Shown here: piece by piece, positions 38,074 through 61,459 of the stretch
Layout of the letters: each line of letters begins with the position of its first letter
Numbering within the stretch: the stretch's first letter is position 1
DNA from: Actinomycetota bacterium
GTDB taxonomy: Bacteria; Actinomycetota; AC-67
Reading direction: 5' to 3'
Length of the DNA stretch: 64,000 nucleotides
Assembly (NCBI GenBank): GCA_046713235.1
Contig: JBKKBZ010000101.1
Span: 345 to 64,344, forward strand
Position numbers and translations under genes: made by a program
Notes under the pieces: model-generated
What the model was told of the DNA's origin: nothing
Database searches by the model: none
The model's input: the letters and a program-made list of their open reading frames with translations, nothing else

Positions 38074-38171
38074 CTGTCCCCCTCGGCCGCTCCGGCGACC
38101 GAACCGTACGTGGACCTGCGCGCTCGGGGCAAGCGGCACCGGACGGCGCGTTCTCGCGCGCGTATGTCATC

Positions 38172-39311: not shown

Positions 39312-39463
39312 CCGATCGCGGACGCGGGCTCGCCGTGCTTGCCGAGTCGCCCGAGTTTCGTCCCCGGCCCGTTCAACGAAGGCGGAAATGTGTGGCAAGT
39401 CACTCTTGCCCATTGTCCAGGATGCTCGCATACTGTAGGGGCGACGAATCATTAGGGGGCAAC

Positions 39464-40297: not shown

Positions 40298-40331
40298 TTG
40301 CGCGGCAGAGGCGCTGAGCACAACCCCGCGC

Positions 40332-41342: not shown

Positions 41343-41583
41343 CGGCTCGAGCCAGATGGGCACGCCGGTCTCGGTGACATTCCCCGATTGTGCGTGATGG
41401 TCGGCCACAATCCCCCCCACGCCGCACGCCGGCGGCCCAAAAGCGATGGTAAACGCCTCCGGCGAGCGGGTCCAGCCCAACTTGCCGGGATTGCCGCCTT
41501 GGTCTAGTGTTCCCACCCTAAGTGACTGCTCGTACTCATCGAGCGGTCCGGGGAGGGATCTAACGGTCCCGGAAGGAGGGGGT

Positions 41584-42096
41584 ATGCGTAAGCTTCTTCG
41601 TATCGCGGTAGTCGTCGTCGTCCTTGGAGGGCTCATGGCGGCCGGCCCAGCGGCCATGGCCGCCGGCCAGAGGCCGGAGACGTTCACAGAGCACCAGGAC
41701 GACTACACCGACACCTTCACCGATCTCGCGTGCATCGGCGGAGTGGAGCAGGAGGCAGTCATCAGCATCGTCGAGGACGGCGTCTTCCACGGCACGTTCT
41801 TCGAGGACGGCCGCCTGCACGTCACCGGGACCTTTGTCGGGCAGTTCATCGCAGACCCGGTAGACCCGGCGCTGCCGACGTACACCGGCCGCTACACGGT
41901 GTGGTTCGGCGAGAACCAGAACAAGAACGTTGACAACGGCACGTTCACGTTCCACGCCAACGGCTCCGCGCCCGACGGCTCCAAGGTGGCGTTCGGCGTC
42001 GTGCATCACATCACCGCCGGATCGATCGACTGGACGGACGACGAGCCGGTCCTCACAGACCTGCGCTCCGAGGTAGATCTCCACCGCTGCAAGTAA
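41584..42096 (+). CDS. secreted hypothetical protein
   Basis: Signal peptide MRKLLRIAVVVVVLGGLMAAGPAAMA. Followed in the same frame, after one TAA, by the next ORF. Confidence 0.5.
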   Translation: MRKLLRIAVVVVVLGGLMAAGPAAMAAGQRPETFTEHQDDYTDTFTDLACIGGVEQEAVISIVEDGVFHGTFFEDGRLHVTGTFVGQFIADPVDPALPTYTGRYTVWFGENQNKNVDNGTFTFHANGSAPDGSKVAFGVVHHITAGSIDWTDDEPVLTDLRSEVDLHRCK

Positions 42097-42228
42097 CGCA
42101 CCACGCTTTCCGACGGCCCGGCGACCCGCCCCGTCGCCGATCCGACGCCGGCCGTTCCGACTCCATCACCGGCGGAGACTCCGTGCCGCGAGGCGCTCGG
42201 GCGAGCCGACCCTCCGCCGGGCGTTCGC

Positions 42229-42612
42229 GTGACCCTGCACGCGAAGCCGGCCACGCTCGGGCGAAACGAAGAGCTGCGCTTCACGGTAAGCCTCCGCAAC
42301 GGAGGGCCGAGTGCCGTCGGCTTCTATCGAGGCCGCGACTGGGTCGATCTGTGGATCTACCGCGGCGACGAGTTCATCTGGACGAAGAGCAAGGCCGGCG
42401 GCTTCTACACCCGGGAGGCCTTGATCGAGTCTCTCGCGCCGGGCGACAGCCGGGCCGAGGACGTGACGTGGGACCAATCCTCGAACTGCCCTGGGGCTCC
42501 ACCCACGGTGACGGCCGGCCGCTATTTCGCCCGCGCGTCGCTCAAGGTGGAGACGGCGTCGGGAACCGTCACGTGGTGGTCCGAGGCGATCCAGTTCACC
42601 ATCCGCCCATGA
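42229..42612 (+). CDS. beta-sandwich domain protein (BsuPI/intracellular-proteinase-inhibitor-like), possibly C-terminal part of the upstream gene
   Basis: Same frame as 41584-42096 and separated only by TAA at 42094-42096, with an open Pro/Thr-rich linker in between. GTG start. Confidence 0.4.
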   Translation: MTLHAKPATLGRNEELRFTVSLRNGGPSAVGFYRGRDWVDLWIYRGDEFIWTKSKAGGFYTREALIESLAPGDSRAEDVTWDQSSNCPGAPPTVTAGRYFARASLKVETASGTVTWWSEAIQFTIRP

Positions 42613-42674
42613 GATCCCCGGCCGCAATCGGGGGTGGCATCGTGCTCCTTATCCTCGGTTCGCGGTCGAGGTAC

Positions 42675-42708
42675 GCATAACGGGTTCGGTTCCAGCCGCA
42701 AGTTATAC
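42675..42708 (-). repeat. attC-11, truncated (about 34 bp) terminal attC-like site
   Basis: gcataac gggttcg gttccagccgcaa gttatac has the arms of the family-A attC with the central region missing. Confidence 0.5.
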
Positions 42709-42721
42709 GGGCCCCTCGAGC

Positions 42722-43273
42722 TCATGCTGGGACCAACCTAACCCACCAATCGCGATTTCGAATAGTGCAGGGCTTGAGATCAGAAAGCGCTTGATAGCCG
42801 GTCGGGTATTGATTGCCGGGCCCGTAGTTCGAGACGTAGCCGATACGACAGTTACCGAGCATGAGTTCCTTGAACGGGTGCTGTGCCTCGTCGAGGTCTA
42901 TGCCGAAGCGGGTTGTCTCAACGAGACAGAGCGTCTTCCCTGAATCGGATTCACTTAGGTACGTGTCGTGTTCGGAGTTTCCCCAGTCGATTGAGCCCTT
43001 GGGACAATCGGGCGCGGGGCCGGGCGTTAGCGTGAAGGCTGCCGAAGGCGCCTGAGTCGGCGTCGTGGATGTCTGGGTGCGAGGACTGGAAGGTCGGCCC
43101 TCGATTCGAGACGATGGACACGCACCGAGTGTTATAGGCAAGAGCCCGACTGCGATCACGGTCCGCCATGTCATGAGCATCTGCACCTCAAGTGAGTTGA
43201 CCCGATGGCCCTCAATAGCAGCTGTGGCCCAGTCCCGAGCATGTCCTTTCGGGCAAGCGAGGCTCACTTTCAA
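42722..43273 (-). CDS. cassette 11: lipoprotein, unknown function
   Basis: MLMTWRTVIAVGLLPITLGAC lipobox. Lower GC. Confidence 0.5.
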   Translation of the reverse strand: MKVSLACPKGHARDWATAAIEGHRVNSLEVQMLMTWRTVIAVGLLPITLGACPSSRIEGRPSSPRTQTSTTPTQAPSAAFTLTPGPAPDCPKGSIDWGNSEHDTYLSESDSGKTLCLVETTRFGIDLDEAQHPFKELMLGNCRIGYVSNYGPGNQYPTGYQALSDLKPCTIRNRDWWVRLVPA

Positions 43274-43290
43274 ATACTAGGCAGGCTCCG

Positions 43291-43365
43291 CCCAACGGTT
43301 TGGCGGCTGAGCAGCCGGGAGCGCGCGCAGCGCGCGAGCGGTCTGTTCCAGTCGCAAGTTAGACG
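43291..43365 (-). repeat. attC-10
   Basis: gcccaac ggtttggcggctgagcagcc ... gttccagtcgcaa gttagac. Confidence 0.7.
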
Positions 43366-43919
43366 GTGGAGATTCCCGCCAACACTTCGCTAATCGCAAG
43401 ATTAGAGTCCTCCAGCCAGACGATGCATCCCTCCGGGTTCTGATCGATTCCCCAGGTCGTGTGTTCAACAAGCTCTCTGGGCACCCAGGCTAGAAGATAG
43501 GGGCTTGGGTAGCGTCGTAGTTCGCGCCGTTCTTCGATCATTGCGACCCAGGTGTCCCAGGGTGGACAGTTATGCGTATCAAAGAAGCCAGCCGATGAGT
43601 CCTGCGCAGCGCCATCAGCGAGCTCGTCATTGGGGAAATAGACCAGCAGGCGTCCAGAGTCTAATGCGCGAGGAACTTCAGTCGAGCGCAACACTTGATG
43701 GCTCCGTAGGACTCCAACATGCCGTACCGCCGAAAAGTAGTCTGCTTCCAGAACCCGCGGACGAGTTTCGTCTCGACGTAAGCATTCCGCCGGATGCGCG
43801 ACATCTACATGCTTCACGCACCAAAGAATCGTTTCGCGAAGTCGAAGCGCTAGCGGATCAAGGGACTCGGAGAGATTCGGCTCGGATCGTCGAATCTTCT
43901 TTGCGAACGACCGCGTCAT
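43359..43919 (-). CDS. cassette 10: hypothetical protein (186 aa)
   Basis: The ORF fills the cassette and its stop lies in the attC box. No family recognised. Confidence 0.5.
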   Translation of the reverse strand: MTRSFAKKIRRSEPNLSESLDPLALRLRETILWCVKHVDVAHPAECLRRDETRPRVLEADYFSAVRHVGVLRSHQVLRSTEVPRALDSGRLLVYFPNDELADGAAQDSSAGFFDTHNCPPWDTWVAMIEERRELRRYPSPYLLAWVPRELVEHTTWGIDQNPEGCIVWLEDSNLAISEVLAGISTV

Positions 43920-43924
43920 GATCC

Positions 43925-43985
43925 GTCTAACGACTTGGGCGCTGACCCGCCGGCGAAGCCGGTCGGGTCCAGCGGCGAGTTCTAC
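43925..43985 (-). repeat. attC-9 (family B, short)
   Basis: gtctaac gacttgggcgctgacccgcc ... gggtccagcggcga gttctac. Confidence 0.65.
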
Positions 43986-43997
43986 GGCCGGGAGTCC

Positions 43998-44210
43998 TCA
44001 AAGCAGCTTCCGAAACTCTTCGATCGTGAGGCCAGCGTCCCGAGCGATTCCACCCATCGTGAGGGCGTTGATTGGGTTCGCGCGCGGAATCGTCAAGATG
44101 CGGCGGCCATCCGACATCACGATGTGCTTCCCCTCGCGAATGACTTCGAAGCCTGCTTTGCGAAGAGCTCGAACCGCACGCTGATGCGAGATGCCGGGAA
44201 TGCTGGGCAT
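43998..44210 (-). CDS. hicA: cassette 9: HicA mRNA-interferase toxin
   Basis: GKHIVMSDGRRILTIPRANPINALTMGGIARDAGLTIEEF is HicA-like. Confidence 0.8.
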   Translation of the reverse strand: MPSIPGISHQRAVRALRKAGFEVIREGKHIVMSDGRRILTIPRANPINALTMGGIARDAGLTIEEFRKLL

Positions 44211-44413
44211 CAGAGGGCGACTTCGATCTCCCGAACTTCCGCTCCTTCGAGCTGCTCGTCGGCGACCGAAAGGTAGGCCTGAATCGCGTCGCGGATGTTC
44301 TCGATAGCCTCGTCCTCATCCTTACCCTGTGACCAGCATCCTGGGAGACCGGGCACGGAGACAGCGACGCCTTCATCCGAACGGTGGAGAGCGATCTTGT
44401 AGCGAACCGTCAT
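44210..44413 (-). CDS. hicB: cassette 9: HicB-like antitoxin (UPF0150)
   Basis: MTVRYKIALHRSDEGVAVSVPGLPGCWSQGKDEDEAIENIRDAI is HicB N-domain-like. Overlaps the hicA start. Confidence 0.75.
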   Translation of the reverse strand: MTVRYKIALHRSDEGVAVSVPGLPGCWSQGKDEDEAIENIRDAIQAYLSVADEQLEGAEVREIEVAL

Positions 44414-44441
44414 ACCCGCATTCTACTCCCGCCGTCCGTCC

Positions 44442-44510
44442 GTTCAACGGCTTGGGAGCTGAGCCGCGCGAGCCCGCAGGGCGAGCGTCGGTTCCAGCCG
44501 CAAGTTGTGC
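44442..44510 (-). repeat. attC-8
   Basis: gttcaac ggcttgggagctgagccgcg ... ggttccagccgcaa gttgtgc. Confidence 0.7.
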
Positions 44511-44571
44511 GGCGACCGATCAGGCGCCTTGGAATTGCACAACGGATTCTCCTCCGGTGACGCGATCGGAC

Positions 44572-45117
44572 TCATGATGCGGTCGGATCACGCGGCTTGT
44601 CCATCGCACTCGCGAGACGCCACGACCCAAGAATCGCTAGCGAGGCACCGCCGACTAGGAGCGCCCACTGCGCGAGCCACCCTGGGTCCGGTCTTCGAGG
44701 GACAGGAGTGCCGGCGCCGAGCACGGACTCGGCCTCCCGAACAGCGGTCGAACCGCGCAGATACTCCGTGCAGAGATTCAGCGGCTGCGGGCTGCCGTTT
44801 GGCTGCGAGACGATGACGTAATCGACCTGCGAGACACTCGTTCCACAGGTGTCCCCACCGCCGCCGGCCACTTTCACTCGCAGATTCGAACGGGCAGGAC
44901 CTTTGAGGACCCGAAGCACGCGGAAGCTCGCGCCGGAAAAGAGATCGATAGAGCGGGGACGCGCGACGTAGACCGCGTCGGCCTCGGTGACCACGTCAGA
45001 GACAGACCCGCGAACGCACGAGCAGGCATGGGCAGGGCTGGAAGAACCTATGAGGAATCCGACGGCTGCCAAGACAGTGAGACTGATGACTCGCGGCCGG
45101 CGCCACATGAGTTTCAC
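44572..45117 (-). CDS. cassette 8: secreted hypothetical protein (C-terminal TM)
   Basis: Signal peptide (ISLTVLAAVGFLIGSSSPAHA) and C-terminal hydrophobic helix. Confidence 0.5.
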   Translation of the reverse strand: MKLMWRRPRVISLTVLAAVGFLIGSSSPAHACSCVRGSVSDVVTEADAVYVARPRSIDLFSGASFRVLRVLKGPARSNLRVKVAGGGGDTCGTSVSQVDYVIVSQPNGSPQPLNLCTEYLRGSTAVREAESVLGAGTPVPRRPDPGWLAQWALLVGGASLAILGSWRLASAMDKPRDPTAS

Positions 45118-45130
45118 GAACTAGCAGTCC

Positions 45131-45206
45131 GCACAACGGACTTGGCGCTCAGCGGCGGCGGCTCGCCGAAGGCCAGCCGTCCGTCCGTTGCAGCGCCTTG
45201 TTAGGC
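45131..45206 (-). repeat. attC-7 (family B)
   Basis: gcacaac ggacttggcgctcagcggcg ... cgttgcagcgcctt gttaggc. Confidence 0.65.
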
Positions 45207-45212
45207 AGCAAG

Positions 45213-45554
45213 TCATGCCGACTCCTTCTGGTATTGGGCATCGAGGTGCTGCGCAAGGTTGAGGACCTCCCGCCACTCCGGTAGCTTGAGTAGATCCGTG
45301 ACGCTTGAGACTCCAGACCCGGAAGCCTCAACAAGCAGCCCATAGAGACGAGCCAGGTCTTTCAACTCGTCCTCGGTGAATGCAGCGAGGAAGGCGGGGC
45401 TCTTCGGGTGGTAGAGGTCAGCACAAAACATGTCGACCAACTCCCCAGGGACATACGCGATCGGGACATTTTGCTCATATTTCAGCTGCCCCGACGGATG
45501 GGCAAGAAGGTGGATGTGCTCCCGCACTGCCCTCCGAATCTCATGAGGTTCCAT
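45213..45554 (-). CDS. cassette 7: hypothetical protein (113 aa)
   Basis: ORF fills the cassette. No family recognised. Confidence 0.45.
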   Translation of the reverse strand: MEPHEIRRAVREHIHLLAHPSGQLKYEQNVPIAYVPGELVDMFCADLYHPKSPAFLAAFTEDELKDLARLYGLLVEASGSGVSSVTDLLKLPEWREVLNLAQHLDAQYQKESA

Positions 45555-45559
45555 GGTCT

Positions 45560-45616
45560 GCCTAACGACTTGGCGCGTCAGCGGCGCGAAGCGTCCGTTG
45601 CACGCGCTTGTTAAAC
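45560..45616 (-). repeat. attC-6 (family B, 57 bp)
   Basis: gcctaac gacttggcgcgtcagcggcg cgaagcgtc cgttgcacgcgctt gttaaac. Confidence 0.65.
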
Positions 45617-46033
45617 CGTGGCGCTGATTCGAATCTCATATCTCGTCCCTGTTCCTAACATGTTTTCTCGAGTCAGGCGCCCAAGTTCCGCGGGGGTTAC
45701 TGCAACGGTCTCCGCTGGTTCAGCAGGATCCCACATGGCCTCGATCCACAAATCAGCCGGCCCCTCGGACGCGAGGGTCTCGAGGGCGATGGCGAGGGGT
45801 TCGAGAATCTCCGATCGCAGGGTCCAATTCGGCGCGTCCCAGTCCACCTCCGCGGGGAGAAAGTCGCCGTCCGTGGACAAGACGCCTCGAATCAAACCCC
45901 GGTCCCTGAAGAATCGGGGCCGGGGATCAACGTGGATTTCCAACCCGCTCTTGCTAGCGAGCCCAGCTGCCCTCTCCAGGGCCTCACGATTCTCGGCACT
46001 CGTGACAGCCCGAATGACGAAACTCAAGCGCAA
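45611..46033 (-). CDS. cassette 6: hypothetical protein (140 aa)
   Basis: Stop codon lies inside the attC box. Confidence 0.45.
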   Translation of the reverse strand: MRLSFVIRAVTSAENREALERAAGLASKSGLEIHVDPRPRFFRDRGLIRGVLSTDGDFLPAEVDWDAPNWTLRSEILEPLAIALETLASEGPADLWIEAMWDPAEPAETVAVTPAELGRLTRENMLGTGTRYEIRISATV

Positions 46034-46043
46034 GCCTTCATCG

Positions 46044-46145
46044 GTTTAACGGTTTGGCGGATGAGCCGCCACGCATCGCGCCCGCACAGCCGAAGATGAA
46101 CGGGCGTCGGGCGCGATCGTGGTCGGTTCCATCCGCAAGTTGTAC
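46044..46145 (-). repeat. attC-5 (family A, about 102 bp)
   Basis: gtttaac ggtttggcggatgagccgcc ... ggttccatccgcaa gttgtac. Confidence 0.7.
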
Positions 46146-46164
46146 GGCACGTTGTTGACCCCCG

Positions 46165-46485
46165 CTACGGTGTCGAGGTCCGAGGCCATCTGAGGATAGC
46201 GCGTGAGACAACTACGACGGCCCCTCCGGCTGCGAGTCCACCTACAGCAACGAGGAAGGCGTACACCATGCGACGGTTGTGTTCAGCGTCGCACTCATCG
46301 TCGTGTCCGGGCACGTGCGGATTCTTTGGAGCGAAGACTATCCCGCACGAAACGATTTGCTCCTCAACATAGCCAGCGCCTTTCGTCTCACCAGCCGGGT
46401 AGGTGTGGTGTGTCGGTACCAAGGCGAGGGCGAGCCCGGACAGTAGACCCATCGCCGCGAGTGCTATTGCTATTCGTCGGTTCAT
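46165..46485 (-). CDS. cassette 5: small signal-peptide/TM protein
   Basis: MNRRIAIALAAMGLLSGLALALVP with a C-terminal TM. Start chosen inside the cassette. Confidence 0.45.
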   Translation of the reverse strand: MNRRIAIALAAMGLLSGLALALVPTHHTYPAGETKGAGYVEEQIVSCGIVFAPKNPHVPGHDDECDAEHNRRMVYAFLVAVGGLAAGGAVVVVSRAILRWPRTSTP

Positions 46486-46599
46486 ATGGGCATCCTCCCC
46501 CAGTGGACAGCGCACGTCCATGACCCTTCGGGCAGTCCGGTGGCGCTCCCCAGGCACCAGAGTCGACGCCGCGTCCCGGGTGTCCGTTTCTATTGGTCC

Positions 46600-46701
46600 G
46601 TACAACGGATTAGCGACTGAGCCGCCGCGTATCGCGCCGGCAAAGCCGAGGTCGAGGGGGCATCGGGCGCGATCGCGGTCGGTTCCAGTCGCAAGTTAGA
46701 C
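46600..46701 (-). repeat. attC-4 (family A, about 102 bp)
   Basis: gtacaac ggattagcgactgagccgcc ... ggttccagtcgcaa gttagac. Confidence 0.7.
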
Positions 46702-46729
46702 GGCGCCCAGTTCAGAGTTCTCGGCGATC

Positions 46730-47404
46730 TCATCTGTCGTCCCTATCCCGTTCAAGAGCCTTCTTTCTTCGACGATACCCAAGGAATGCTGAAATCACAG
46801 CTATCCCTAAGGCCCACGGGAGCCCTCCGACGAGGACTGCTTCTGGCCAAGACACCGGATCAGATGACGTGAATTTGTCCTGCGCCGCACCGGCGAACAG
46901 CAAGCCGACAAACAAACCCAAGGTTATGAGAAGGTCGCGGATTGGATGGTAGGAAGGTATGAACTCAGCGGCGGGCGTGTCCCGATGCTCGGCGGTGCTG
47001 CGTAGTAGTTTTCGGAGATGCTGCAAATCATGTTCAAGGACGCCGATCTCAATTTCAGCCGTCTCGCTCTTGGCAAGCTCGACGACAGCGTCGGGGTTCA
47101 TGCCCCACGCTTCTTTCAATTTGGGTTGTCGTGGGGCCGCTGACGTTGGAACGAGCTTCAGCCGGACATACTTCGAAGGTATCGGGATTCGTGTCCAGAC
47201 GAACACGCCGTTCTCCATCCATCCGATTCCGTTTCGCCAGTGGCGCGCCAAACCTCGTTCCTCGCCGGAGGCGACCCTCAGGCCGCATTCAATCCAGCCT
47301 GGGTGCAACTTCCGAAGCCGAAATCGTCGACGAATCAGGATCCCGAAGAACCCAAATACCGTGACCGGAACGATGATGCCGCCGACGAGCACTAGGGAAT
47401 CCAT
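46730..47404 (-). CDS. cassette 4: multi-pass membrane protein (224 aa)
   Basis: N- and C-terminal TM helices. No family recognised. Confidence 0.5.
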   Translation of the reverse strand: MDSLVLVGGIIVPVTVFGFFGILIRRRFRLRKLHPGWIECGLRVASGEERGLARHWRNGIGWMENGVFVWTRIPIPSKYVRLKLVPTSAAPRQPKLKEAWGMNPDAVVELAKSETAEIEIGVLEHDLQHLRKLLRSTAEHRDTPAAEFIPSYHPIRDLLITLGLFVGLLFAGAAQDKFTSSDPVSWPEAVLVGGLPWALGIAVISAFLGYRRRKKALERDRDDR

Positions 47405-47411
47405 GAAGTCC

Positions 47412-47513
47412 GTCTAATGGATTAGCGGCTGAGCCGCGGCGCGTCGCGCCGCGAAAGCATCGGCTCCGATACGGTCGGGCGCGACCGCCGTCGGTTCCAG
47501 CCGCAAGTTGTAC
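47412..47513 (-). repeat. attC-3 (family A) with degenerate core box (ATTAGAC on array strand instead of GTTAGAC)
   Basis: Plus strand reads gtctaat where the paralogs read gtctaac/gtacaac. The first G of the GTT triplet is replaced by A. Confidence 0.65.
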
Positions 47514-47519
47514 GGCCCA

Positions 47520-47980
47520 TTAATCGGCAGAACTGCCGAGGTAGCGCACATCGTCGAACCCTTCGTGTAGGTCCTTCCAGAAGTCGTCACGCAAGATCTC
47601 AGGATAGACGAGCACGTCCCTGAGCTCATCCTGATTAAACCACCGCGTGGTCCGCTGAAGGTCATTGGGGACATCTCGTTGGGATCCGGGTTGCCGGGAC
47701 TCGTGTCCGTCTGACAAGAAATAGAGCTCAAGCCAGCGAGTATCACGAATCGAATCCCAGAACTCGCGCAAGTAGATAAGCCGGCCGATCTCTACAAGAA
47801 GCCCTGCTTCCTCAAACACCTCGCGCTGGGCGCCGGCGAATAGGGTCGAGTCAGGTTCCTCGAGCCCACCACCGGGCGGTATCCAGTATTCATCACCAGT
47901 CCGCGGGTCGACTTCGCGCACAAGGAGTAACCGGTCTGCGTCGACGATCAGAACCGAAGTCCTAACACCTTGTTTCATTG
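47520..47980 (-). CDS. cassette 3: NUDIX hydrolase
   Basis: Nudix box GGGLEEPDSTLFAGAQREVFEEAGL. Confidence 0.7.
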
Positions 47981-48688
47981 GGTTGGCCGTCCAGCACTCC
48001 GTTCCCAGATTCCTTCCCACTGCACCCATGTGCCCGTCTGCGGCTGTTCACGTAGGGTCGCAACCTCCCGCAGCGCCAACGCGGGCCCGAATCCATCGTG
48101 CGTCAGTGCTTCGAGTTCTTGGCGTGAGAAGAAGTGGATCGGGATCCCATCTTTGGATCCTTCCTGATAACGAATCGCCAGACCGCCCTTCGGGTTCTGG
48201 CTTAGGACCTCATGCCGTCGCCCAATTTCCGTCGAAACTGAGTTCACGCGGAGGAAGAATAGTCCACGTGGACGAAGGAGCCGCTGTGCCTTCTCAAAAT
48301 AAGCGTAGGCTTCGGACTCAGTCCCGTGTTGGAAGACCTGAATCGCAATTAGGTAGTCGAAGTCATGCGGACTGGAGAAGTTAACGAAGTCTACGCACAG
48401 CAACCGGTCGTCCGCGTCGGGCGGCAGCTTCGACCGCAATTGGGCGATGGCTTCCGGTGAGCTGTCGATTCCAACCAGATTCAATCCGGCAGAATGGAGG
48501 GGGACGAAGTTACGGCCGTTCCCGCATCCAACGTACAGCCCTTTCCCCGATTGAACGAGAGGCCGCGACTGGAGGGTGGTGGTGATATCGCGGACGAAGG
48601 GCAAGGGCGGCTCACTCGCATAGCGGCCGAGTCGGTATTCGTTATCCCAGCTCCTTGAAACAGAATCGCGTTTCACGCGTGATCTCAT
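47975..48688 (-). CDS. cassette 3: class I SAM-dependent methyltransferase
   Basis: Motif I LYVGCGNGRN. Stop abuts the NUDIX start with no attC in between. Confidence 0.7.
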   Translation of the reverse strand: MRSRVKRDSVSRSWDNEYRLGRYASEPPLPFVRDITTTLQSRPLVQSGKGLYVGCGNGRNFVPLHSAGLNLVGIDSSPEAIAQLRSKLPPDADDRLLCVDFVNFSSPHDFDYLIAIQVFQHGTESEAYAYFEKAQRLLRPRGLFFLRVNSVSTEIGRRHEVLSQNPKGGLAIRYQEGSKDGIPIHFFSRQELEALTHDGFGPALALREVATLREQPQTGTWVQWEGIWERSAGRPTQ

Positions 48689-48723
48689 CGCCCTTCACCT
48701 ACAGTTGCGGTGGTGGCTGGTCC

Positions 48724-48790
48724 GTACAACGGATTGGCGGCTGAGCCGCGCGAGGCGTAGCCGAGCGGCGGTTCCAGCCGAGAGTTATGC
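48724..48790 (-). repeat. attC-2 (family A, short)
   Basis: gtacaac ggattggcggctgagccgcg ... ggttccagccgaga gttatgc. Confidence 0.7.
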
Positions 48791-49213
48791 CGTGGCGCAA
48801 CCTACCTCCCACCCGAACACGGTAGCGCGCGTGTGAATTGGGTGAATGAGCGCATCGACATCAGATGAAGCGCGCGTGCCGAGCTGGATACCGAGGACAT
48901 CCGTGGCGATCAACTCGAACGAGCGGACCAGCGGCTCAAAGTCGACCTCTGGCGGGTTGTGTGAGTAAGTCACCACGACGACACCACGGCGTTCGACTGC
49001 CCGAAGCTGCACAAGCTTCAAGCAGTCACCGAGCGTGCTCACGTTGCCTGCATAGGGATGCAAGAGGTTCTCCGACCAGTGCTCCGCTGGTTTTCCATTG
49101 TCTCCGAACGGCCGCACAATCTTGAACTCAAGCGCCCAGTGTCCGGGGATGAGGAGATCTGGCTGGCGCATGGTGCGAGCGCGCGCGTACTCCGAATGGC
49201 TCCCGGCAAGCAC
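48785..49213 (-). CDS. cassette 2: hypothetical protein (142 aa)
   Basis: Stop codon within the attC box. Confidence 0.5.
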   Translation of the reverse strand: MLAGSHSEYARARTMRQPDLLIPGHWALEFKIVRPFGDNGKPAEHWSENLLHPYAGNVSTLGDCLKLVQLRAVERRGVVVVTYSHNPPEVDFEPLVRSFELIATDVLGIQLGTRASSDVDALIHPIHTRATVFGWEVGCATA

Positions 49214-49360
49214 ACGGCCGATGCGCGCAACAAGCTGCGGCTCGCCGAATGGACCAGCGCCTGGCTGGAATGCTTTGTGTGCCTCGCCGGACGAGTCGAC
49301 GGCCTTAAGCGCAGCACCGATGCGCGCAATGAGCTCGTTCAGCGTTCACTCCTGGGATCG

Positions 49361-49438
49361 GTATAACGGTCTGGCGGCTGAGCAGCCAGGTAAGCGCGCG
49401 AAGCGCGCGTCCTGGTCTGTTCCAGTCGCGAGTTAAAC
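49361..49438 (-). repeat. attC-1
   Basis: gtataac ggtctggcggctgagcagcc ... gttccagtcgcga gttaaac. Confidence 0.7.
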
Positions 49439-49924
49439 GGCGTCATCGCGCTCCGGGCCTTTCAGTGTTCGACTCTTGATGTAGTCGCAAACCCTATCGG
49501 CTTTGGTTTGTAGGTGGAACCATTCGGCTGCGTTCCACTTCTGCACCGCTACCGCGGTGACCTCTTCGCCATCCGCGCGTCGGATGGTGAGGCCGTAGTA
49601 GCCAGGCTCGCAATCGAGGATTTCTGGCCATGAGATGAGCAGGATGCGAAATGGATTGCGGATGTAGAGGCCCTCCTCGCGGGCCTCGATGTAGGGCACG
49701 ATCGTAATGCGCCAGAGAAGGATGAGCGGACCGGCGATGATTGGTAACGCCAGGAAACCCCAGCCGGGCCATTCTTCTCCGAACCAATCGCCCCATCCCG
49801 GTGAGGTGATCGCCCAGATCATGAGAGCGATGGCGCCGAGGAGGCCCGCGAGGATGACTGCTCCGGCAACTGCGCGTAATGCAAGCGCTGGCCTCCACGG
49901 GAGCGGCTGCTGAGTCGAGGACAT
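49433..49924 (-). CDS. cassette 1: membrane protein with bacterial PH-like (bPH_2/YdbS-like) domain
   Basis: Two TM helices, then a PH-like C-terminus. ATG 13 nt after a GTTAAAC junction box. Stop TAA inside the attC box. Confidence 0.5.
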   Translation of the reverse strand: MSSTQQPLPWRPALALRAVAGAVILAGLLGAIALMIWAITSPGWGDWFGEEWPGWGFLALPIIAGPLILLWRITIVPYIEAREEGLYIRNPFRILLISWPEILDCEPGYYGLTIRRADGEEVTAVAVQKWNAAEWFHLQTKADRVCDYIKSRTLKGPERDDAV

Positions 49925-49943
49925 TCGAACTTGTCCGTTTAAC

Positions 49944-50119
49944 TCTTGTTTCTGCTGACCTGCATAGCGCACATGGCCGCAGGCTAGCACTCGATTCCGT
50001 CGGGAGCCAGACATGGCGGCAGCGCCTATAGCCTGCAGAAACAGCGTATCGGCGGCCCTGCACTCGGCGTGTTATGCCGCCTGCCGGTCGGTATAGCGCG
50101 CGGGTCGGGATAACGTGCA
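49944..50119 (-). other. putative attI region between the intI 3' end and the first cassette junction (GTTAAAC at 49937-49943 on the array strand)
   Basis: A simple junction box with no partner inverted repeat. Contains gttatgc at 50070-50076 and ggataacg motifs that could be integrase-binding repeats. Assignment is by position only. Confidence 0.35.
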
Positions 50120-51136
50120 TCAGAGGCGCCGGAGGGGTCCTGGGCGGTCCAGAGGACTCGAGACGCCCATCGCCCCCCGGTTCAGGACGTGCGTGTAGAT
50201 CATCGTGGTCCGGACGTCGCGGTGGCCGAGGAGTTCCTGGACGGTCCGGATGTCGTAGCCGTCTTCGAGCAGGTGCGTTGCGAAGGAGTGCCGGAAGGTA
50301 TGAGGGCTCACCCGCTTGCTCGAGGAAACCAGCAGGCTCGCGACGCGCACAGCCTTCTGGATCACGGACTCGTGCAGATGATGGCGGTGGCGCAACCCGG
50401 TCTCGGCGTCCCGGTAATGCGACGTCGCCGGGAACACCCATTGCCAGGGCCAGTCGGTTTCCGCGTTGGGGTACTTCCGGCGGAGCGCGGTGGGGAGAGG
50501 CGCTCGACCTAGGCCTTGGCGAAGGTCGGCCTGGTGCTGCCGTTTCACCGAGAGCAGGTGTTCGCTGAGGGACCGCCGCACCGCCCGGGGCAGCATGGTG
50601 ACGCGGTCCCTCCGTCCCTTGCCGTCTCGCACGACGATCTCGCCGCGCTGGAAGTCGAGGTCCTTGATCCGCAGCGAGAGCCCCTCGCCCAGACGGAGTC
50701 CGGTTCCGTACAGCAAGCTCGCAACGAGTCGGGGTGTTCCATCCATCGCCCGAAGAACTGAATCCACCTCTTCGCGCGCGAGCACATCGGGCAGGCGCGC
50801 GGGGCGGCACGCGCGTACCACACCCTCTATTCGATCCAAGGGTTGGTTCAGGACCTGCTCATACAGGAACAGCACCGCCGCGAGCGCTTGGTTCTGTGTG
50901 GAGGCGGAGACCTTCCCTTGGATCGCGAGATGCGACAGGAACGCGTTCACGTGGGACTCGGTGAGATCGCGGGGAGGCTTGCGGTGGAAGGCAAGGTACC
51001 GGCCGATCCAGTGGAGTTAGGCCTTCTCGGTGCGCGGACTGTAGTGCCGCGCGCGCAGCCGCTGAACGACGCGGCCCCTGAGCTCGGGGACATCATCGCG
51101 GGCGACAACACGCAGTCGACCTGCGACCGAATCCAT
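50120..51136 (-). pseudogene. intI: integron integrase IntI, interrupted by in-frame TAA (51017-51019) replacing a conserved Tyr codon
   Basis: Catalytic core intact (R...K...HTFRHSFAT...LGHRDVRTTMIYTHV) and the IntI-specific insert ALRRKYPNAETDWPWQWVFPA...RHRHH is present. The frame upstream of the stop continues as MDSVAGRLRVVARDDVPELRGRVVQRLRARHYSPRTEKA*LHWIGRYLAFH, matching the IntI N-terminus. Confidence 0.8.
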
Positions 51137-51469
51137 GGGCGGATCTTGGGAGCCTCAGTAGGACGCGTCAAGAAGCGGAAGAGTGCGAGAACGCGCCCTG
51201 TGCGCCAAGGGGGAGCACTGACCAGAGCGTGTCGTCGCCGGCTTACGCCTCGACCTCCAAGGTGACGTGCTCGGACAGGATCTCTGCGACACTCGGGCGT
51301 ACACTCATCCTCGCAGGCTCCGGCTCGGGTGCCCCTTGTGGGTCAACTGACCGCTTGGCGGTCTCATACGGAGGGAGCACGCTCTCTCCACTAGATCCCG
51401 CGGCCAGGAGCCCACGCACTCAACCGAAGGACACCAGATCGTGAAAACTACAACTCGTCTGGTCGTTAG

Positions 51470-51554
51470 TGCCCGGGGCAGGTCTCGATCCTGCACGCCC
51501 CCGGAGGGGCAGCGGATTTTAAGTCCGCCGCGTCTGCCGTTTCGCCACCCGGGC
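51470..51554 (-). tRNA. tRNA-Leu (anticodon UAA), long variable arm
   Basis: Manual fold: acceptor GCCCGGG/CCCGGGC, D-arm TGGCGAAACGGCAGACGC, anticodon stem-loop GCGGA-CTTAAAA-TCCGC, long variable arm, T-arm GCAGG-ATCGAGA-CCTGC. T-loop position 54 is A. Confidence 0.75.
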
Positions 51555-51592
51555 CGGCCTCGATGCTACCCGGCGACCCGACCGCCGCGCGG

Positions 51593-53458
51593 CTAGATCG
51601 CGGCGCGGCTGAACTGGGTCTCGTACAGCTCGGTGTACGTGCCGCCGGCGCCGACGAGGTCGGCATGGCGGCCGCGCTCCACGATCCTGCCGCCGTCCAC
51701 CACGAGGATCTCGTCGGCCGCCACGATCGTCGACAGCCGGTGCGCGATCACGATGGACGTTCGGCTCGCCAGCGCATGGCCGAGCGCCCGCTGGATCAAC
51801 GCCTCGGACTCCGAATCCAGATGCGACGTCGCCTCGTCCAGGATCACGATCGCCGCGTCCTTGAGCAGCACCCGCGCGATCGCCAGGAGATGCTTCTCCC
51901 CGCCCGACAGCCGGTAGCCGCGCTCGCCCACCACGGTCCGGTAACCGTCGGGCAGCGACGCGATGAGGTCGTGGATCTGGGCCGCGCTGCACGCCTGGAC
52001 GATCTCCTCGTCGGTCGCCTCCGGCCGCGAGTAGCGCAGGTTGGCGCCGATCGTGTCGTGGAACATGTGCGGATCCTGGGTCACGATCCCGATCGAGGCG
52101 GCCAGCGAAGTCATCGTCACGTCGCGAACGTCCATGCCGTCGATCCGTACTGCGCCCTGCGTGACGTCGTAAATCCGCGGGATCAGCATGGAAATCGTGG
52201 TCTTGCCGGCACCCGAAGGACCCACGAGCGCCACCGTCTCGCCCGGCTCAACCCCGAAGGAAACATCGCGCAGCACCCAATCCGACGGGCGGGATTCCAG
52301 CTCCGTCATGCCCTCCTCCAGCGAGGGAATCGACACCTCGGCACCGGGCGGGTAACGGAACCGCACCCCGTCGAACTCGATCTTTCCGGACGGCCGCTGC
52401 AGCGGCACCGCGCCCTTGCGGTCCCGGATCGGATGCGGGAGATCGAGCACCTCGAAGACCCGTTCGAAGGACACAAACGCCGTCAGCAGATCCACGCGCG
52501 CGTTCGTGAGCTGCGTCAGAGGGCCGTAGAGCTGGGCGATGTACACCGCAAAGGCCGCCACCGTGCCGGCCTGAATGGCTCCGTCGAACACGAGCCTCCC
52601 GCCGAACCAGTACACGACCGCAGTGCCCACAGCGGCCACCAGCCCTAAAATCATGAAGAAACTGCGTGCGAACAGCGCGATCTGAATTCCGATGTCGCGG
52701 AGTCCGCGCGCGCGACCCTGGAAGTCCTCCTTCTCCTGCGACGGCCGGCCGAACAGCTTGACCAGCAGGGCCCCGGCGACGTTGAAGCGCTCGGTCATCA
52801 TGCTGTTCAACCGCGCGTTGAGCTGCATCTGCTCGCGCGTCGCGGACTGAATGCGCTCGCCCAGGCGGCGTGTCGGGAGGATGAACAGCGGGAGCATGGC
52901 CAGCGACAGGACCGTGAGTCTCCACTCCAGAGCCAGCATGACGATCAGCGTCGAGAACACGCTGATGACGTTGGAGGTGACGCTGCCGAGCGTTCCGGTG
53001 ACGGCGTTCTGGGCCCCGATGACGTCGTTGTTGAGCCGGCTGATCAGCGCTCCGGTATGCGTCCGGGTGAAGAACGCCAGCGGCATCCGCTGGACGTGAG
53101 CAAAGAGCGAGGACCGCAGATCAAAGATGAGTCCCTCACCGACCCGCGACGAGAAGAACCGCGCGCCGAGCGACAGCAGGGCCGACCCCAGGGCCACACC
53201 GATCGCCGCGATAGCCAGCCAGTTGAGGCCGGCGGAGTCCCGCTTCGGTAGCACATGGTCGATCAGGCTCCGAAGCAGCAGGGGTGGAACAACGGCAAGA
53301 AACGACCCGGCGACCGTGATCAGCAAGAACAGGATGATCTGCTTCCGGTACGGTTTGGCGAAGCTGAGCGCGCGGGCAATGACCTCACGCGGCAGCTTGC
53401 GGCCCTTGACATCGAGACGCGAACCGAACGGCCCCCGGCCGGCATGTATTGGGAACAT
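51593..53458 (-). CDS. ABC transporter, fused permease + ATPase (exporter, MsbA-like)
   Basis: Six-TM domain, then Walker A GPSGAGKTT, signature LSGGEKHLLAIARVLL and Walker B ILDEATS. Confidence 0.85.
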   Translation of the reverse strand: MFPIHAGRGPFGSRLDVKGRKLPREVIARALSFAKPYRKQIILFLLITVAGSFLAVVPPLLLRSLIDHVLPKRDSAGLNWLAIAAIGVALGSALLSLGARFFSSRVGEGLIFDLRSSLFAHVQRMPLAFFTRTHTGALISRLNNDVIGAQNAVTGTLGSVTSNVISVFSTLIVMLALEWRLTVLSLAMLPLFILPTRRLGERIQSATREQMQLNARLNSMMTERFNVAGALLVKLFGRPSQEKEDFQGRARGLRDIGIQIALFARSFFMILGLVAAVGTAVVYWFGGRLVFDGAIQAGTVAAFAVYIAQLYGPLTQLTNARVDLLTAFVSFERVFEVLDLPHPIRDRKGAVPLQRPSGKIEFDGVRFRYPPGAEVSIPSLEEGMTELESRPSDWVLRDVSFGVEPGETVALVGPSGAGKTTISMLIPRIYDVTQGAVRIDGMDVRDVTMTSLAASIGIVTQDPHMFHDTIGANLRYSRPEATDEEIVQACSAAQIHDLIASLPDGYRTVVGERGYRLSGGEKHLLAIARVLLKDAAIVILDEATSHLDSESEALIQRALGHALASRTSIVIAHRLSTIVAADEILVVDGGRIVERGRHADLVGAGGTYTELYETQFSRAAI

Positions 53459-56598: not shown

Positions 56599-57741
56599 TT
56601 ACAGCGTGTTGAGATCGTCGAGGCGGCCCCAGTCGGCCGGCTCGGTCGTGCGGTAGTCGTACATACTCCCGCCTAGAACACGCATCTCGCGCGCGGCGCG
56701 CACGAAATCGGCGACCTCGGCGTCGGCCACATTGTCGGCAACCCCACCGGCGATGTTCACCGGAAGCGTATTTCCTGTGAGCTTGCGCGTCTCGGAGATG
56801 TTTCCCTTCGTGTAGCCGTAGGCGCAGTGCTCGGGCACCTCGGGACAGTCATCACGATAGGACCAGTACGACATCGGCATGACGACGTTGAATCCTTTGG
56901 CGAACTCCGTCCAAGGGAATCCGGTCCAGTGTGCCGGACGGATCGCCATCCCGAGCGGTGGCGGCGTTATCGCGGCCATCGGAAACCGCGCACCGATGAG
57001 ATGCCGAACGCGAAGCGAGTGCGTGATGATGCCGCGGTTCCAGTCCTCCTGCGTCATGGTCTGGGATGGGGGAACTCCGTCGCAGGACGATCCCTTCAAC
57101 TCGCACTTGTCCTCGATGTCGACACCGATCCCATCGAAGCCCTGGCCGTCGGAGGTCCGGAAGCGCGCGATGGCGACCGTTCGGTTCACGTCGCGGTCCA
57201 TGTTTCCATAGCCGGGCAGGTACCAGCCGACGATCTTCATGCCGTTCGCATGCGCGGCCCGCACCCAGGCGGCCAGGGCGCCGGCGTCTTTGAAGTCTCC
57301 CGGCAGCGTGTAGCGCCCTGTTTGGATGAAAAGGGCGCGGACTCCTTTCGACCGCATCGCGGCCGCGGAGTCCTCGGGATCGAGTCCGTAGTCGTAGACG
57401 TCAACCCAAGTCGCAAGGCGACGGAAGGCCGTCAGATCCAATCCCGAGACGGCAGCCGCCCTGGGCTTCGGTCTCGGTCTCGCCGCGACGGCCGGCTTCG
57501 GCGACGGCTTGAGGAAGAGCTTCGGCGACGGGGACGGTTTCGGCGACGGGGACGGCGATGGGGACGGGGTCGGGGACGGCTCGAAGGACGGAAGCTCCAG
57601 CGGCGACGACACGGCGAGCGGCGCCCGCGGCGGCGGCTCGTAACGGACGTAGGCCAGCATGACGGCCAGCGCAGAAGAAACCACCATCGCGACGACGAGC
57701 GCCACATGGATCGGCGAACGAAACGAGCGAGGAATCCTCAT
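56599..57741 (-). CDS. membrane-anchored glycoside-hydrolase-like TIM-barrel protein (GHL family) with Pro/Ser-rich linker
   Basis: TM helix, then PSPTPSPSPSPSPKPSPSP linker, then a GH-like domain (GVRALFIQTGRYT, GMKIVGWYLPGY, GFDGIGVDIE). Confidence 0.5.
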   Translation of the reverse strand: MRIPRSFRSPIHVALVVAMVVSSALAVMLAYVRYEPPPRAPLAVSSPLELPSFEPSPTPSPSPSPSPKPSPSPKLFLKPSPKPAVAARPRPKPRAAAVSGLDLTAFRRLATWVDVYDYGLDPEDSAAAMRSKGVRALFIQTGRYTLPGDFKDAGALAAWVRAAHANGMKIVGWYLPGYGNMDRDVNRTVAIARFRTSDGQGFDGIGVDIEDKCELKGSSCDGVPPSQTMTQEDWNRGIITHSLRVRHLIGARFPMAAITPPPLGMAIRPAHWTGFPWTEFAKGFNVVMPMSYWSYRDDCPEVPEHCAYGYTKGNISETRKLTGNTLPVNIAGGVADNVADAEVADFVRAAREMRVLGGSMYDYRTTEPADWGRLDDLNTL

Positions 57742-57829
57742 GGCATTACTCGAAGAAAACCAGTATGTCGGCCACCCCTCAACGCGGCAACCACCTTGCT
57801 CGACGCGGTGCTCGCCTCGGAAGTTGCCA

Positions 57830-58744
57830 TCAGAGCAAGGACGCGGCGAGCCCGTCCAGGATGTCGGCCTCGCTGACCAGGAGATTCTGGAAGCCAAACC
57901 GGGTCATGACGCGCTCGAGAATCACGGTCCCGGCAACGATCACATCCTCCCGGCCCGGAGGCATGGCCGGCAGCCGCTTCCGGGCTTCCGACGTCATTGC
58001 CGCAAGGCGAGCGAGGAGCGCTCGCACATCGTCAAGAGTCATCGAGGAATGGTGGATGGCGTCGCGGTCGTATCCGGTCAGCCCGAGCGTGATCGCCGCG
58101 AGCGTGGTGATGGTCCCGGCCAGGCCGACCAGGATTCGCGCGCGAGCCGGTACAACCACGCGCTCGGCTTCCTCCAACGCATGGTCGACGATCTTCGCGA
58201 CCTCGCCGAGCTGTCCAGGAGCCGGCGGATCCGACAGTGCGCATCGCTCCGTCAGCCGAACCGCGCCCACGTCGAGTGACACCGCAGCCTCAACGGTTCT
58301 CACCCCAACTACCATCTCAGTCGATCCCCCGCCGATGTCGAGCACACAGAATGGGCCCGTCCGGCCGGCCAGGTCCGACGTGGCACCGGCAAAGGACAAG
58401 GCCGCCTCCTCGTCTCCGGACAGCACATCGCATGCCCGGCCGGTTCGGTTCCTCACGGCTTCTAGAAAGTCTTCGCGGTTGCCTGCGTCGCGCACGGCGC
58501 TCGTGGCTGCGATGCGTGAACGGCGCACGCCGGCCTTCTCGCACCGGTCCCAATACATCCCTACGGCGTCCACGGTTCGCGTCAGCGCCTCAGGATGGAG
58601 CCGCCGGTCCCGGTCTACTCCCTGACCCAGTCGAGTAATAGTCAGGGAGCGCTCGATTTGCCGCAGCTCACCATTCGCGCGCTCGGCGAGATACAGCCGG
58701 ACCGAATTCGTGCCGACGTCGATGACTCCGATCCGAAAGCTCAC
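57830..58744 (-). CDS. ppx: Ppx/GppA-family exopolyphosphatase
   Basis: IGVIDVGTNSVRLYLAE and VLDIGGGSTEMVVG are Ppx-GppA motifs. Confidence 0.85.
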   Translation of the reverse strand: MSFRIGVIDVGTNSVRLYLAERANGELRQIERSLTITRLGQGVDRDRRLHPEALTRTVDAVGMYWDRCEKAGVRRSRIAATSAVRDAGNREDFLEAVRNRTGRACDVLSGDEEAALSFAGATSDLAGRTGPFCVLDIGGGSTEMVVGVRTVEAAVSLDVGAVRLTERCALSDPPAPGQLGEVAKIVDHALEEAERVVVPARARILVGLAGTITTLAAITLGLTGYDRDAIHHSSMTLDDVRALLARLAAMTSEARKRLPAMPPGREDVIVAGTVILERVMTRFGFQNLLVSEADILDGLAASLL

Positions 58745-59220
58745 GGAGCGACGCAGGGACCGGAGCAGTCGACGGGCTCGATCCGCGCGGCAGCCTCGGC
58801 TCCTACGGGGTTGTCACCGCCGACGAGGTGGTGGGCGTAGAGAGCGTGAAGGCACTTCACTCGGTCGGGCATCCCTCCCGCTCCCGATGCACCCGGCTCG
58901 CATACCCCGTCGCGGTCGGCGACGTAGCTTTCGTTCGCCGCGTGGTAACGGTCGGCGAACGCTTCGTCGGAGGAAAGTCGTTCGGCCATCGTGCGCATGA
59001 ACCCGCCCGCCTCCAGCCTCCCGGCAGCACGCGCCGCGGCCGGGCAAGTAAGCCAGTACAGCGTGGGAAACGGCTCCCCCGATTCGAGACGGGGCTCGGT
59101 GCGCACGACCGCCGGCAGGCCGTACGCGCAGCGAACGGCGACCTCAGTAGTGCCCCGGGGATGGCGGCCGATCTGCGCGGAAACGATTCTTACGTCGGTC
59201 TGGTCCATCTCGCTCCTCAT
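58741..59220 (-). CDS. DUF501 domain protein
   Basis: Sits in the conserved position between ftsB-like and ppx. Cys-rich C-terminus. Start uncertain. Confidence 0.55.
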   Translation of the reverse strand: MRSEMDQTDVRIVSAQIGRHPRGTTEVAVRCAYGLPAVVRTEPRLESGEPFPTLYWLTCPAAARAAGRLEAGGFMRTMAERLSSDEAFADRYHAANESYVADRDGVCEPGASGAGGMPDRVKCLHALYAHHLVGGDNPVGAEAAARIEPVDCSGPCVAP

Positions 59221-59267
59221 GGCGAAAGCGGCCTTGCGGCCGCTCTCTATCGCCACATTCTCGCGGA

Positions 59268-59648
59268 TTAGCCGCGCTTCGACTCGCGCTGGCGCCGCCA
59301 ATCGACGAGCCGTTCCTCGCTTTGGCGCATGAACCTCTTGAGCTTCTGCTCGAACTCAGGATCCTTTCCCCTCGCGCGACGCGGAGCTTCCGGCTGCCAA
59401 TCCGGAGCCGCTTGCTTGATCGAGAGGTCGATCTTCCCCCCATCCTTGATCCCCACCACCTTGACGGTGACCTTGTCGTTCTCGCGGAGGTGGTCGCTCA
59501 CGGTGCGGACGAAGTTTCGGTCGATCTCGGAGATATGGACCAGACCCGTCTCTCCGCCGTCCACCGCAACAAAGGCCCCGTACGGGGCCAGGCGGGTGAC
59601 CGTTCCCTCGACGATGGCTCCAACTTCTAGTGGCATACCGGTTTCCAT
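59268..59648 (-). CDS. S1 RNA-binding domain protein
   Basis: S1 motif VGAIVEGTVTRLAPYGAFVAVDGGETGLVHISEI. Confidence 0.65.
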   Translation of the reverse strand: METGMPLEVGAIVEGTVTRLAPYGAFVAVDGGETGLVHISEIDRNFVRTVSDHLRENDKVTVKVVGIKDGGKIDLSIKQAAPDWQPEAPRRARGKDPEFEQKLKRFMRQSEERLVDWRRQRESKRG

Positions 59649-59756
59649 GCTCCTTTCGGGATCGGCCCGGCTCTTGCCGGGATCGACCACCATGGTATGC
59701 CCGGCGCGTGAAGAGGGTCAATGGCTCCTACGGCTGATGAGCCTGAAATCGAGCGC

Positions 59757-61459
<1,703 letters not shown>

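Follow-up and report, generated by a model that had tools for sequence, protein, structure and literature searches.

A probable reverse-type chromosomal integron with an interrupted integrase gene in a probably actinomycetotal contig

What is to be made of an integron whose integrase gene points into its own cassettes? In class 1 integrons, intI diverges from the cassettes, and the cassette promoter (Pc) lies within intI1, converging on the integrase promoter PintI1. In the 64,000-nt stretch of contig JBKKBZ010000101.1 analysed here (the window), by contrast, intI is co-directional with the array. The segment at issue, 49361–51136, extends from the last base of the first cassette recombination site, attC1 (49361), to the intI start codon (51136), and an earlier note on this DNA had described it as an inverted integron of the kind known from Treponema. 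We consider it highly likely that the locus represents a reverse-type (inverted-integrase) chromosomal integron, probably in the genome of an uncultured member of Actinomycetota. Read along the minus strand, it would run from a promoter-like element through intI and a conserved ~180-bp attI to 11 cassettes, each ending in an attC site. It would share three modules and their recombination logic with class 1 integrons, with intI flipped relative to the classical layout so that it is transcribed toward attI and the cassettes.

Orientation of the integrase gene and the cassette array

The intI gene occupies 51136..50120 on the minus strand, from an ATG at 51136 to a TGA at 50120, and comprises 338 codons with a single nonsense codon inside. 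Its product scores 424.3 bits against TIGR02249 ("integron integrase", NCBIfam; curated cut-off 265), and the match runs unbroken over profile positions 5–314 of 315, indicating that the IntI-specific insertion is present. Pfam domains include the SAM-like N-terminal domain (PF13495, residues 19–100) and the catalytic domain (PF00589). Identity to 12 aligned relatives is 55–62%; all positions invariant among these proteins are retained apart from a stop at codon 40, and the KYPNA...WQWVFP...RHHLHE segment aligns with its counterparts. Judged by its sequence, the intI product is an IntI-subfamily tyrosine recombinase that includes the IntI-specific insertion.

The array, made up of 10 full attC sites and a shortened eleventh, lies on the low-coordinate side of intI and faces its 3′ end. 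The sites, read off the sequence directly and all on the minus strand, are attC1 (49438–49361), attC2 (48790–48724), attC3 (47513–47412), attC4 (46701–46600), attC5 (46145–46044), attC6 (45616–45560), attC7 (45206–45131), attC8 (44510–44442), attC9 (43985–43925) and attC10 (43364–43290). A covariance model built from these 10 sites was run, unfiltered, against all 64 kb. All 10 came back on the minus strand at 56–79 bits (E 1e-13 to 2e-20), whereas the plus strand gave three of them again, at ~11–12 bits (E about 1), and nothing for the other seven. Apart from attC11, at the end of the array (42708–42675, minus strand; 18.7 bits, E 0.0096), no further attC-like match better than E = 0.68 was found in the 64 kb. 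The 10 sites fit the model by construction, and the informative parts are the strand difference and the lack of other matches. The terminal attC11 spans only 34 nt, without an L′ arm: a GTTATGC box stands directly behind R″ and L″. Its R″ fails to complement the previous R′ (4/7 positions), and the site marks where the array ends.

Box order and folding give the same polarity. In each site, RYYYAAC lies at or just past the stop codon of a minus-strand open reading frame (ORF), with GTTRRRY at the far end. The consensus fold contains 11 stem pairs, six of them with compensatory changes, and the folded bottom strands (window plus strand) carry two single-base bulges on the 3′ (R″/L″) arm, the arm on which described attC sites carry their extrahelical bases. 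The final six bases of an R′ box are part of the following cassette, so that R″ of site n should complement R′ of site n−1 and not the R′ of its own site. Over the 11 sites, with four variable positions each, 37/44 positions were complementary in the former pairing versus 23/44 in the latter. This rule places the beginning of the array at its high-coordinate end, beside intI, with the cassettes on the minus strand. It also explains why a regular-expression scan requiring 6/7 R″/R′ complementarity inside one site recovered no real attC. Rfam holds no attC family, and a gathering-threshold Rfam scan of the whole window gave only a tRNA.

Every cassette ORF with a recognisable domain (PH domain, methyltransferase, NUDIX, HicB and HicA) is on the minus strand. 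On these sequence features, the cassettes are assigned to the minus strand, and the predicted recombining bottom strand is the window plus strand. The earlier note had placed a minus-strand intI at the high-coordinate end with its 3′ end toward the array, and all cassette ORFs and attC sites on the minus strand. Both statements are borne out by the positions of the TIGR02249 gene (51136–50120) and the array (49942–42681), by attC scores of 56–79 bits on the minus strand against ~11 on the plus strand, and by the Pfam domains on minus-strand ORFs. The opposite outcome that the note had named, plus-strand cassettes with spurious minus-strand ORFs, did not hold up on examination: box order, bulges and the R″(n)/R′(n−1) pairing all indicate the minus strand.

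The attC sites show some features of their own. Their R and L helices are separated by a strongly asymmetric unpaired spacer (for example in 47412–47513 and 43290–43364) of 2 nt (TT/TC) at R″ and 6 nt (such as TAATCC) at R′; in model attC sites both sides measure ~5 nt. The unpaired bases of the bottom strand are C and T here and G and T in model sites. The three 102-nt sites of cassettes 3–5 (47412–47513, 46600–46701 and 46044–46145) form a sub-family with 72–80% identity over their full length, including the variable loop, and attC6 and attC7 share another L″ variant, TGCAACGGAC.

Is this layout peculiar to the window? A scan of species-representative genomes yielded 80 loci (L001–L080) with integrases 53–62% identical to that of the window; closer relatives at 67–83% (L081–L084) came from a protein search, the genome scan reaching at most 62%. 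The attC model found sites in 30 of the 80 loci, 24 of them in reverse layout (same strand, downstream of the integrase) and six in classical layout (upstream, opposite strand), a count that is indicative only. The reverse set covers, among others, Acidobacteriota, Eisenbacteria, Thermoanaerobaculia, Coriobacteriia, Planctomycetia and a Nannocystaceae assembly; the classical set, among others, a Betaproteobacteria assembly, Thiobacillus, Steroidobacteraceae, Methylomirabilis and one Nitrospira assembly. The classical relatives (6/30 loci) are interleaved with the reverse ones at similar integrase identity. All three of the nearest relatives with enough sequence to score, L081–L083 (integrases 67–73% identical), are reverse, with 5–13 attC matches each, 7–9 of them at 35–62 bits. 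Going by these sequence comparisons, the reverse layout is usual among the relatives of the window and no peculiarity of this locus.

The layout also has a literature. A reverse integron was described in Treponema denticola in 2004 (Coleman et al.) and later across the genus (PMC3607928, PMC4909258). The same layout occurs in Chlorobium phaeobacteroides, Blastopirellula marina and an Acinetobacter baumannii class 1 integron (PMC6557892, PMC4889954). An "inverted integrase group" is one of three broad integron groups named by Boucher et al. (2007; cited in PMC3575428), and Cury et al. (2016) found the inverted integron-integrase group to be paraphyletic (PMC4889954). A 2026 survey using IntegronFinder 2.0 treats both orientations as the two expected types in its methods (PMC13323075). 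The layout itself therefore changes nothing, reverse integrons being an already recognised type that annotation tools handle. The relatives of the window (Acidobacteriota, Planctomycetota, Eisenbacteria, Coriobacteriia and Nitrospirota) partly overlap the phyla named for the inverted-integrase group.

Comparison with Treponema-type integrons, as drawn in the earlier note, is apt (PMC3607928, PMC4909258). Like the integron of T. denticola ATCC 35405, that of the window is chromosomal, with canonical attC sites, toxin–antitoxin cassettes and many ORFs without known function. It differs in having 11 cassettes against 45 and an intI with a nonsense codon, and its host is a high-G+C organism, probably of Actinomycetota. 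Its integrase and the one in a Treponema-labelled assembly (L068) share only ~55% identity, and attI is unrelated to the Treponema attI and conserved only in its own clade.

The attI site and transcription of the array

The attI region extends over 50119..49937 (minus strand), between the intI stop codon (50122–50120) and the crossover. Its core (49954..49937, minus strand) consists of an L box, CAGAAAC (49954–49948), the spacer AAGA, and an R box, GTTAAAC (49943–49937), with the crossover G|TT at 49943/49942, 177 bp past the intI stop codon. The class 1 attI1 core, AAAAC-AAA-GTTAGGC, is similar to the AGAAAC-AAGA-GTTAAAC of the window. The R box and the attC1 R″ box, GTTTAAC, are exact reverse complements. 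Two inverted boxes with a 4-bp gap fit the described attI design of two inverted boxes 4–5 bp apart (PMC12614218).

The crossover was mapped by comparison with L084, a 1.7-kb contig whose integrase is 83% identical to that of the window. DNA similarity covers the 3′ end of intI, continues for 183 bp past its stop codon and breaks right after GTTAA. Past this point L084 enters an unrelated cassette, whose attC opens with GCTTAAC, the complement of L084's own GTTAAGC. Such a break is the pattern expected at an attI crossover, which places the crossover there. The earlier note had predicted attI downstream of intI, and the complementarity of the R box to attC1 R″, together with the end of L084 similarity at this position, confirms it. 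As far as the sequence tells, attI has its normal orientation relative to the cassettes and only intI is flipped. New cassettes would enter at G|TTAAAC (49943/49942) through recombination of attI with a folded attC bottom strand.

Comparison of five integrons (the window and L081–L084, with integrases 67–83% identical to that of the window) revealed shared attI blocks. The core motif is A.A...A.GAGTTARRC, in which RGAGTTARRC is invariant or nearly so, and a conserved block, GYTAKNYTG, lies ~45 bp ahead of the crossover. Further upstream, at 50102..50071 (minus strand), a block CGCGCGCTATACCGACC...GGCATAAC containing an inverted GTTAT-like element is kept in the window, L084, L081 and L083. By analogy with attI1, which carries direct repeats, this block is a candidate accessory integrase-binding site. 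Since attI sites are usually hard to define, the locus supplies a precisely mapped one (crossover, L and R boxes, upstream blocks) for an environmental clade of reverse integrons.

How, then, would the cassettes be transcribed? With intI directed into the array, the class 1 scheme of a Pc inside intI and diverging from it cannot apply, and the convergent interference between Pc and the intI promoter known from class 1 integrons should be unable to operate here. Transcription of the cassettes would come from intI read-through, from a promoter inside attI, or from both. The locus thereby offers a clean case for studying cassette expression when intI points into the array, and the effect of a premature stop in intI.

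Read-through, which the earlier note had also suggested, would start at a conserved promoter-like element upstream of intI. This candidate (51171..51143, minus strand) combines TTGACG (51171–51166), a 17-nt spacer and CAAGAT (51148–51143). In L084, the block CTCTTCCGYTTCTTGAC (−35 region) is kept, as are A2 and T6 of the second hexamer. The intI ATG follows the CAAGAT hexamer by only 6 nt, so the intI mRNA could be leaderless. The attI promoter would be the TGCTAGCCT/TANNNT motif, located 38 nt upstream of the crossover; TGCTAGCCT occupies 49989..49981 (minus strand) within the GYTAKNYTG block and is a candidate extended −10 element (TGnTANNNT) or an integrase-binding repeat. TANNNT stands at the aligned attI position in 5/5 integrons, preceded by TGn in 3/5. 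For the T. denticola integron, whose Pc is predicted in the interval separating intI from the first cassette, a reporter assay showed the Pc-carrying fragment to be active (PMC6557892, PMC4909258). The HicBA cassette of the window probably has its own promoter, as toxin–antitoxin cassettes commonly do.

The earlier note had expected cassette 1 to lack the usual divergent Pc promoter. A scan of 49300–51700 gave no consensus sigma-70 promoter, though the TANNNT of attI is a candidate, and an intrinsic-terminator scan of the same interval found no terminator-like hairpin between intI and cassette 1. No actinobacterial LexA box (TCGAAC-N4-GTTCGA, ≤3 mismatches) was present between the tRNA and intI. 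Over the whole window this pattern occurs 67 times, versus 42.6 ± 6.6 in shuffled sequences, none of which reached 67; the excess probably reflects the composition or codon usage of TCGA-rich sequence.

The shared attI raises a further, tentative possibility, to which we give somewhat less than even weight. The window and L081–L084 may form a distinct family of reverse integrons in the chromosomes of uncultured Actinomycetota, marked by integrases of 67–83% identity, a common attI of ~180 bp and similar attC sites, with attI carrying its own TGnTANNNT cassette promoter and intI leaderless. If so, the expression design of this family would be separate from the convergent Pc/PintI arrangement of class 1.

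The interrupted integrase gene and competing explanations

Codon 40 of intI (51019..51017, minus strand) is an in-frame TAA, unambiguous in the window sequence, that takes the place of a Tyr conserved in 12/12 aligned relatives. The corresponding codon in L084, the closest relative at the DNA level, is TAC; the lesion in the window is a single C-to-A substitution. A functional integron platform requires an intact frame, which intI lacks owing to this TAA. From the Tyr40-to-stop change, the integrase of this copy is probably inactive. It is probably not made full length, and the array is therefore likely to be static, unless acted on in trans by another integrase. The earlier note was silent on the in-frame TAA, which bears on its read-through idea: a premature stop could, speculatively, lower read-through into the cassettes by Rho-dependent polarity.

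Retention of an array beside a defective integrase gene is also described for Xanthomonas-type integrons with inactivated intI and for clusters of attC sites lacking an integrase (CALIN) beside intI pseudogenes (PMC4889954; bioRxiv 10.1101/2025.06.18.660453). Unlike those examples, the window has one point nonsense mutation in an otherwise intact gene, plus the reversed layout.

It is unlikely, though worth weighing, that the integrase is still functional and the array dynamic, either because the TAA is an assembly error or a polymorphism or because a 276-aa product starting at GTG 50950 is active. The gene otherwise looks intact and keeps its invariant positions, fitting a very recent change or an error, and the assembly is of metagenome type; the public protein record of the contig holds only this 276-aa remainder (P0001, start GTG 50950). 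Such a product would, however, lose residues 1–62, most of the SAM-like domain (PF13495, residues 19–100). The TAA is read unambiguously, and interrupted intI genes are common beside chromosomal arrays (PMC4889954).

The start of intI shows a further irregularity. Relative to L084, the window has a 1-nt deletion directly after the intI ATG (window 51115–51171, minus strand; L084 177–260). The annotated TTG start of L084 aligns with TTG 51171, which is in a different frame in the window, and the N-terminal peptides in the TTG-51171 frame are alike (MTRPTEAPKIRPWIRSQ versus MTHPLDAPTIHQWTRQQ).

Several points count against the interpretation of the locus as an actinomycetotal reverse integron with the elements proposed above. 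The indel near the intI start may be a second lesion or reflect another start codon, which leaves the true start uncertain, and the TAA may stem from an assembly error or from a minority variant in a metagenome assembly. Both promoter candidates are weak consensus matches in sequence terms: the element upstream of intI agrees with 8/12 consensus positions and falls under the scan threshold, and the attI TANNNT, with its GYTAT resembling the GTTA core, may just as well be a repeat bound by the integrase. The attC model, built from the window's own array, favours look-alike sites, which makes the 24:6 ratio of reverse to classical loci no more than indicative. Finally, the host was assigned from best-match names and synteny and not from a phylogeny.

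As to the host, the same contig carries, at 56599–61450 on the minus strand, eno, a small ORF, an S1-domain protein gene, DUF501 and Ppx/GppA. The order eno, S1, DUF501, Ppx/GppA is typical of Actinobacteria. Among enolase relatives with an organism name, 14/15 are Actinomycetota or Actinobacteria, and the named integrase relatives at 67–73% identity are also Actinomycetota; the host is probably an uncultured member of this phylum. The presence of eno, S1, DUF501 and ppx on the contig supports a chromosomal context. Surveys of complete genomes reported no complete integron in Actinobacteria (PMC4889954, PMC9024848), so that an integron linked to an enolase operon is mildly notable. Database annotations already label such Actinomycetota integrases; the locus adds physically linked evidence for integrons in the chromosomes of a phylum considered nearly devoid of them.

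The locus has neither hallmark of the mobile classes 1–5: the intI product scores 309 bits against the NF011946 model, under its cut-off of 435, and the flanks hold housekeeping genes. Unlike class 1 integrons, it shows no Tn402 or 3′-conserved-segment context. Sedentary chromosomal integrons have been defined by more than 19 attC sites or by presence in all genomes of a species (Cury et al. 2016). With 11 attC sites the window falls short of that number; a search for relatives turned up no conspecific genome, the integrase of the best DNA-level relative being no more than 83% identical.

Could the element instead be part of a mobile island at tRNA-Leu, and not a resident chromosomal integron? 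We regard this as quite improbable. A tRNA-Leu(TAA) at 51554..51469 (minus strand), ~330 bp upstream of intI, does have its 3′ end toward the integron, and the closest relatives lie at different chromosomal sites. The G+C content of the array (0.604) is also below that of intI and both flanks (~0.66), and climbs again below the end of the array at 42675; low G+C is, however, usual for cassettes. No direct repeat of the tRNA 3′ end appears among the 20 largest repeat families listed for 38000–52000, a tRNA stands beside intI in 0/10 relatives checked, and no other mobility gene is evident.

A recent inversion of intI in this genome only, from a classical divergent ancestor and with no functional meaning for the layout, is very improbable. 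The damage to intI by the nonsense codon, and possibly by the indel near its start, could suggest a rearrangement, as could the tRNA and a short ORF without a Pfam match (51419..51243, minus strand) just upstream of the gene. Against this, the four closest relatives share the order intI 3′ end, attI, cassettes, with DNA collinear over the intI/attI junction; 24/30 more distant relatives have the same order; and the sequence upstream of intI is free of attI-like and attC-like sites. The remaining alternative, in which the cassettes are on the plus strand, convergent with intI, and the minus-strand ORFs are spurious, has next to no chance: long ORFs do occur on both strands at 60–66% G+C, but plus-strand attC matches number only 3/10 at ~11 bits versus 10/10 at 56–79 bits on the minus strand, the RYYYAAC/GTTRRRY order and the R″(n)/R′(n−1) rule fit the minus strand only, and the Pfam domains fall in minus-strand ORFs that terminate at or just before R″.

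Cassette contents and neighbouring features

All 11 cassettes are given here in array order on the minus strand. Cassette 1 (49942..49367, 576 bp) has an ORF at 49924–49433 for a membrane protein with a bacterial PH domain (bPH_6), and cassette 2 (49366..48730, 637 bp) an ORF at 49213–48785 without a Pfam match. Cassette 3 (48729..47418, 1312 bp) encodes a methyltransferase (48688–47975) and a NUDIX hydrolase (47978–47520), whose stop and start codons overlap in ATGA. Single ORFs occupy cassette 4 (47417..46606, 812 bp; ORF 47404–46730), cassette 5 (46605..46050, 556 bp; ORF 46485–46165), cassette 6 (46049..45566, 484 bp; ORF 46033–45611), cassette 7 (45565..45137, 429 bp; ORF 45554–45213) and cassette 8 (45136..44448, 689 bp; ORF 45117–44572). 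Cassette 9 (44447..43931, 517 bp) encodes the HicB antitoxin (44413–44210; PF15919, E 3.8e-10) and the HicA toxin (44210–43998; PF07927, E 3.7e-7). Cassette 10 (43930..43296, 635 bp) has an ORF at 43919–43359, and the last, cassette 11 (43295..42675), an ORF at 43273–42722 followed by the shortened attC.

Two cassettes thus hold gene pairs with overlapping stop and start codons, methyltransferase with NUDIX (47520–48688) and HicB with HicA (43998–44413). L081 likewise has methyltransferase, NUDIX and HicAB cassettes. A tblastn comparison of the window with L001–L080, a search outside which L081 lay, found no common cassette or synteny, the only similarity being of the generic ABC-transporter/NUDIX kind.

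The short ORF between the tRNA and intI encodes 58 aa and ends in ...VRPSVAEILSEHVTLEVEA. Its last 20 residues resemble the N-terminus of some transposases, and the ORF may be a remnant. Cumulative GC skew drops steadily over the window to about −0.85, a weak skew. Were the plus strand the lagging one, the leading-strand template would carry the attC bottom strands, an arrangement reported for large chromosomal integrons.

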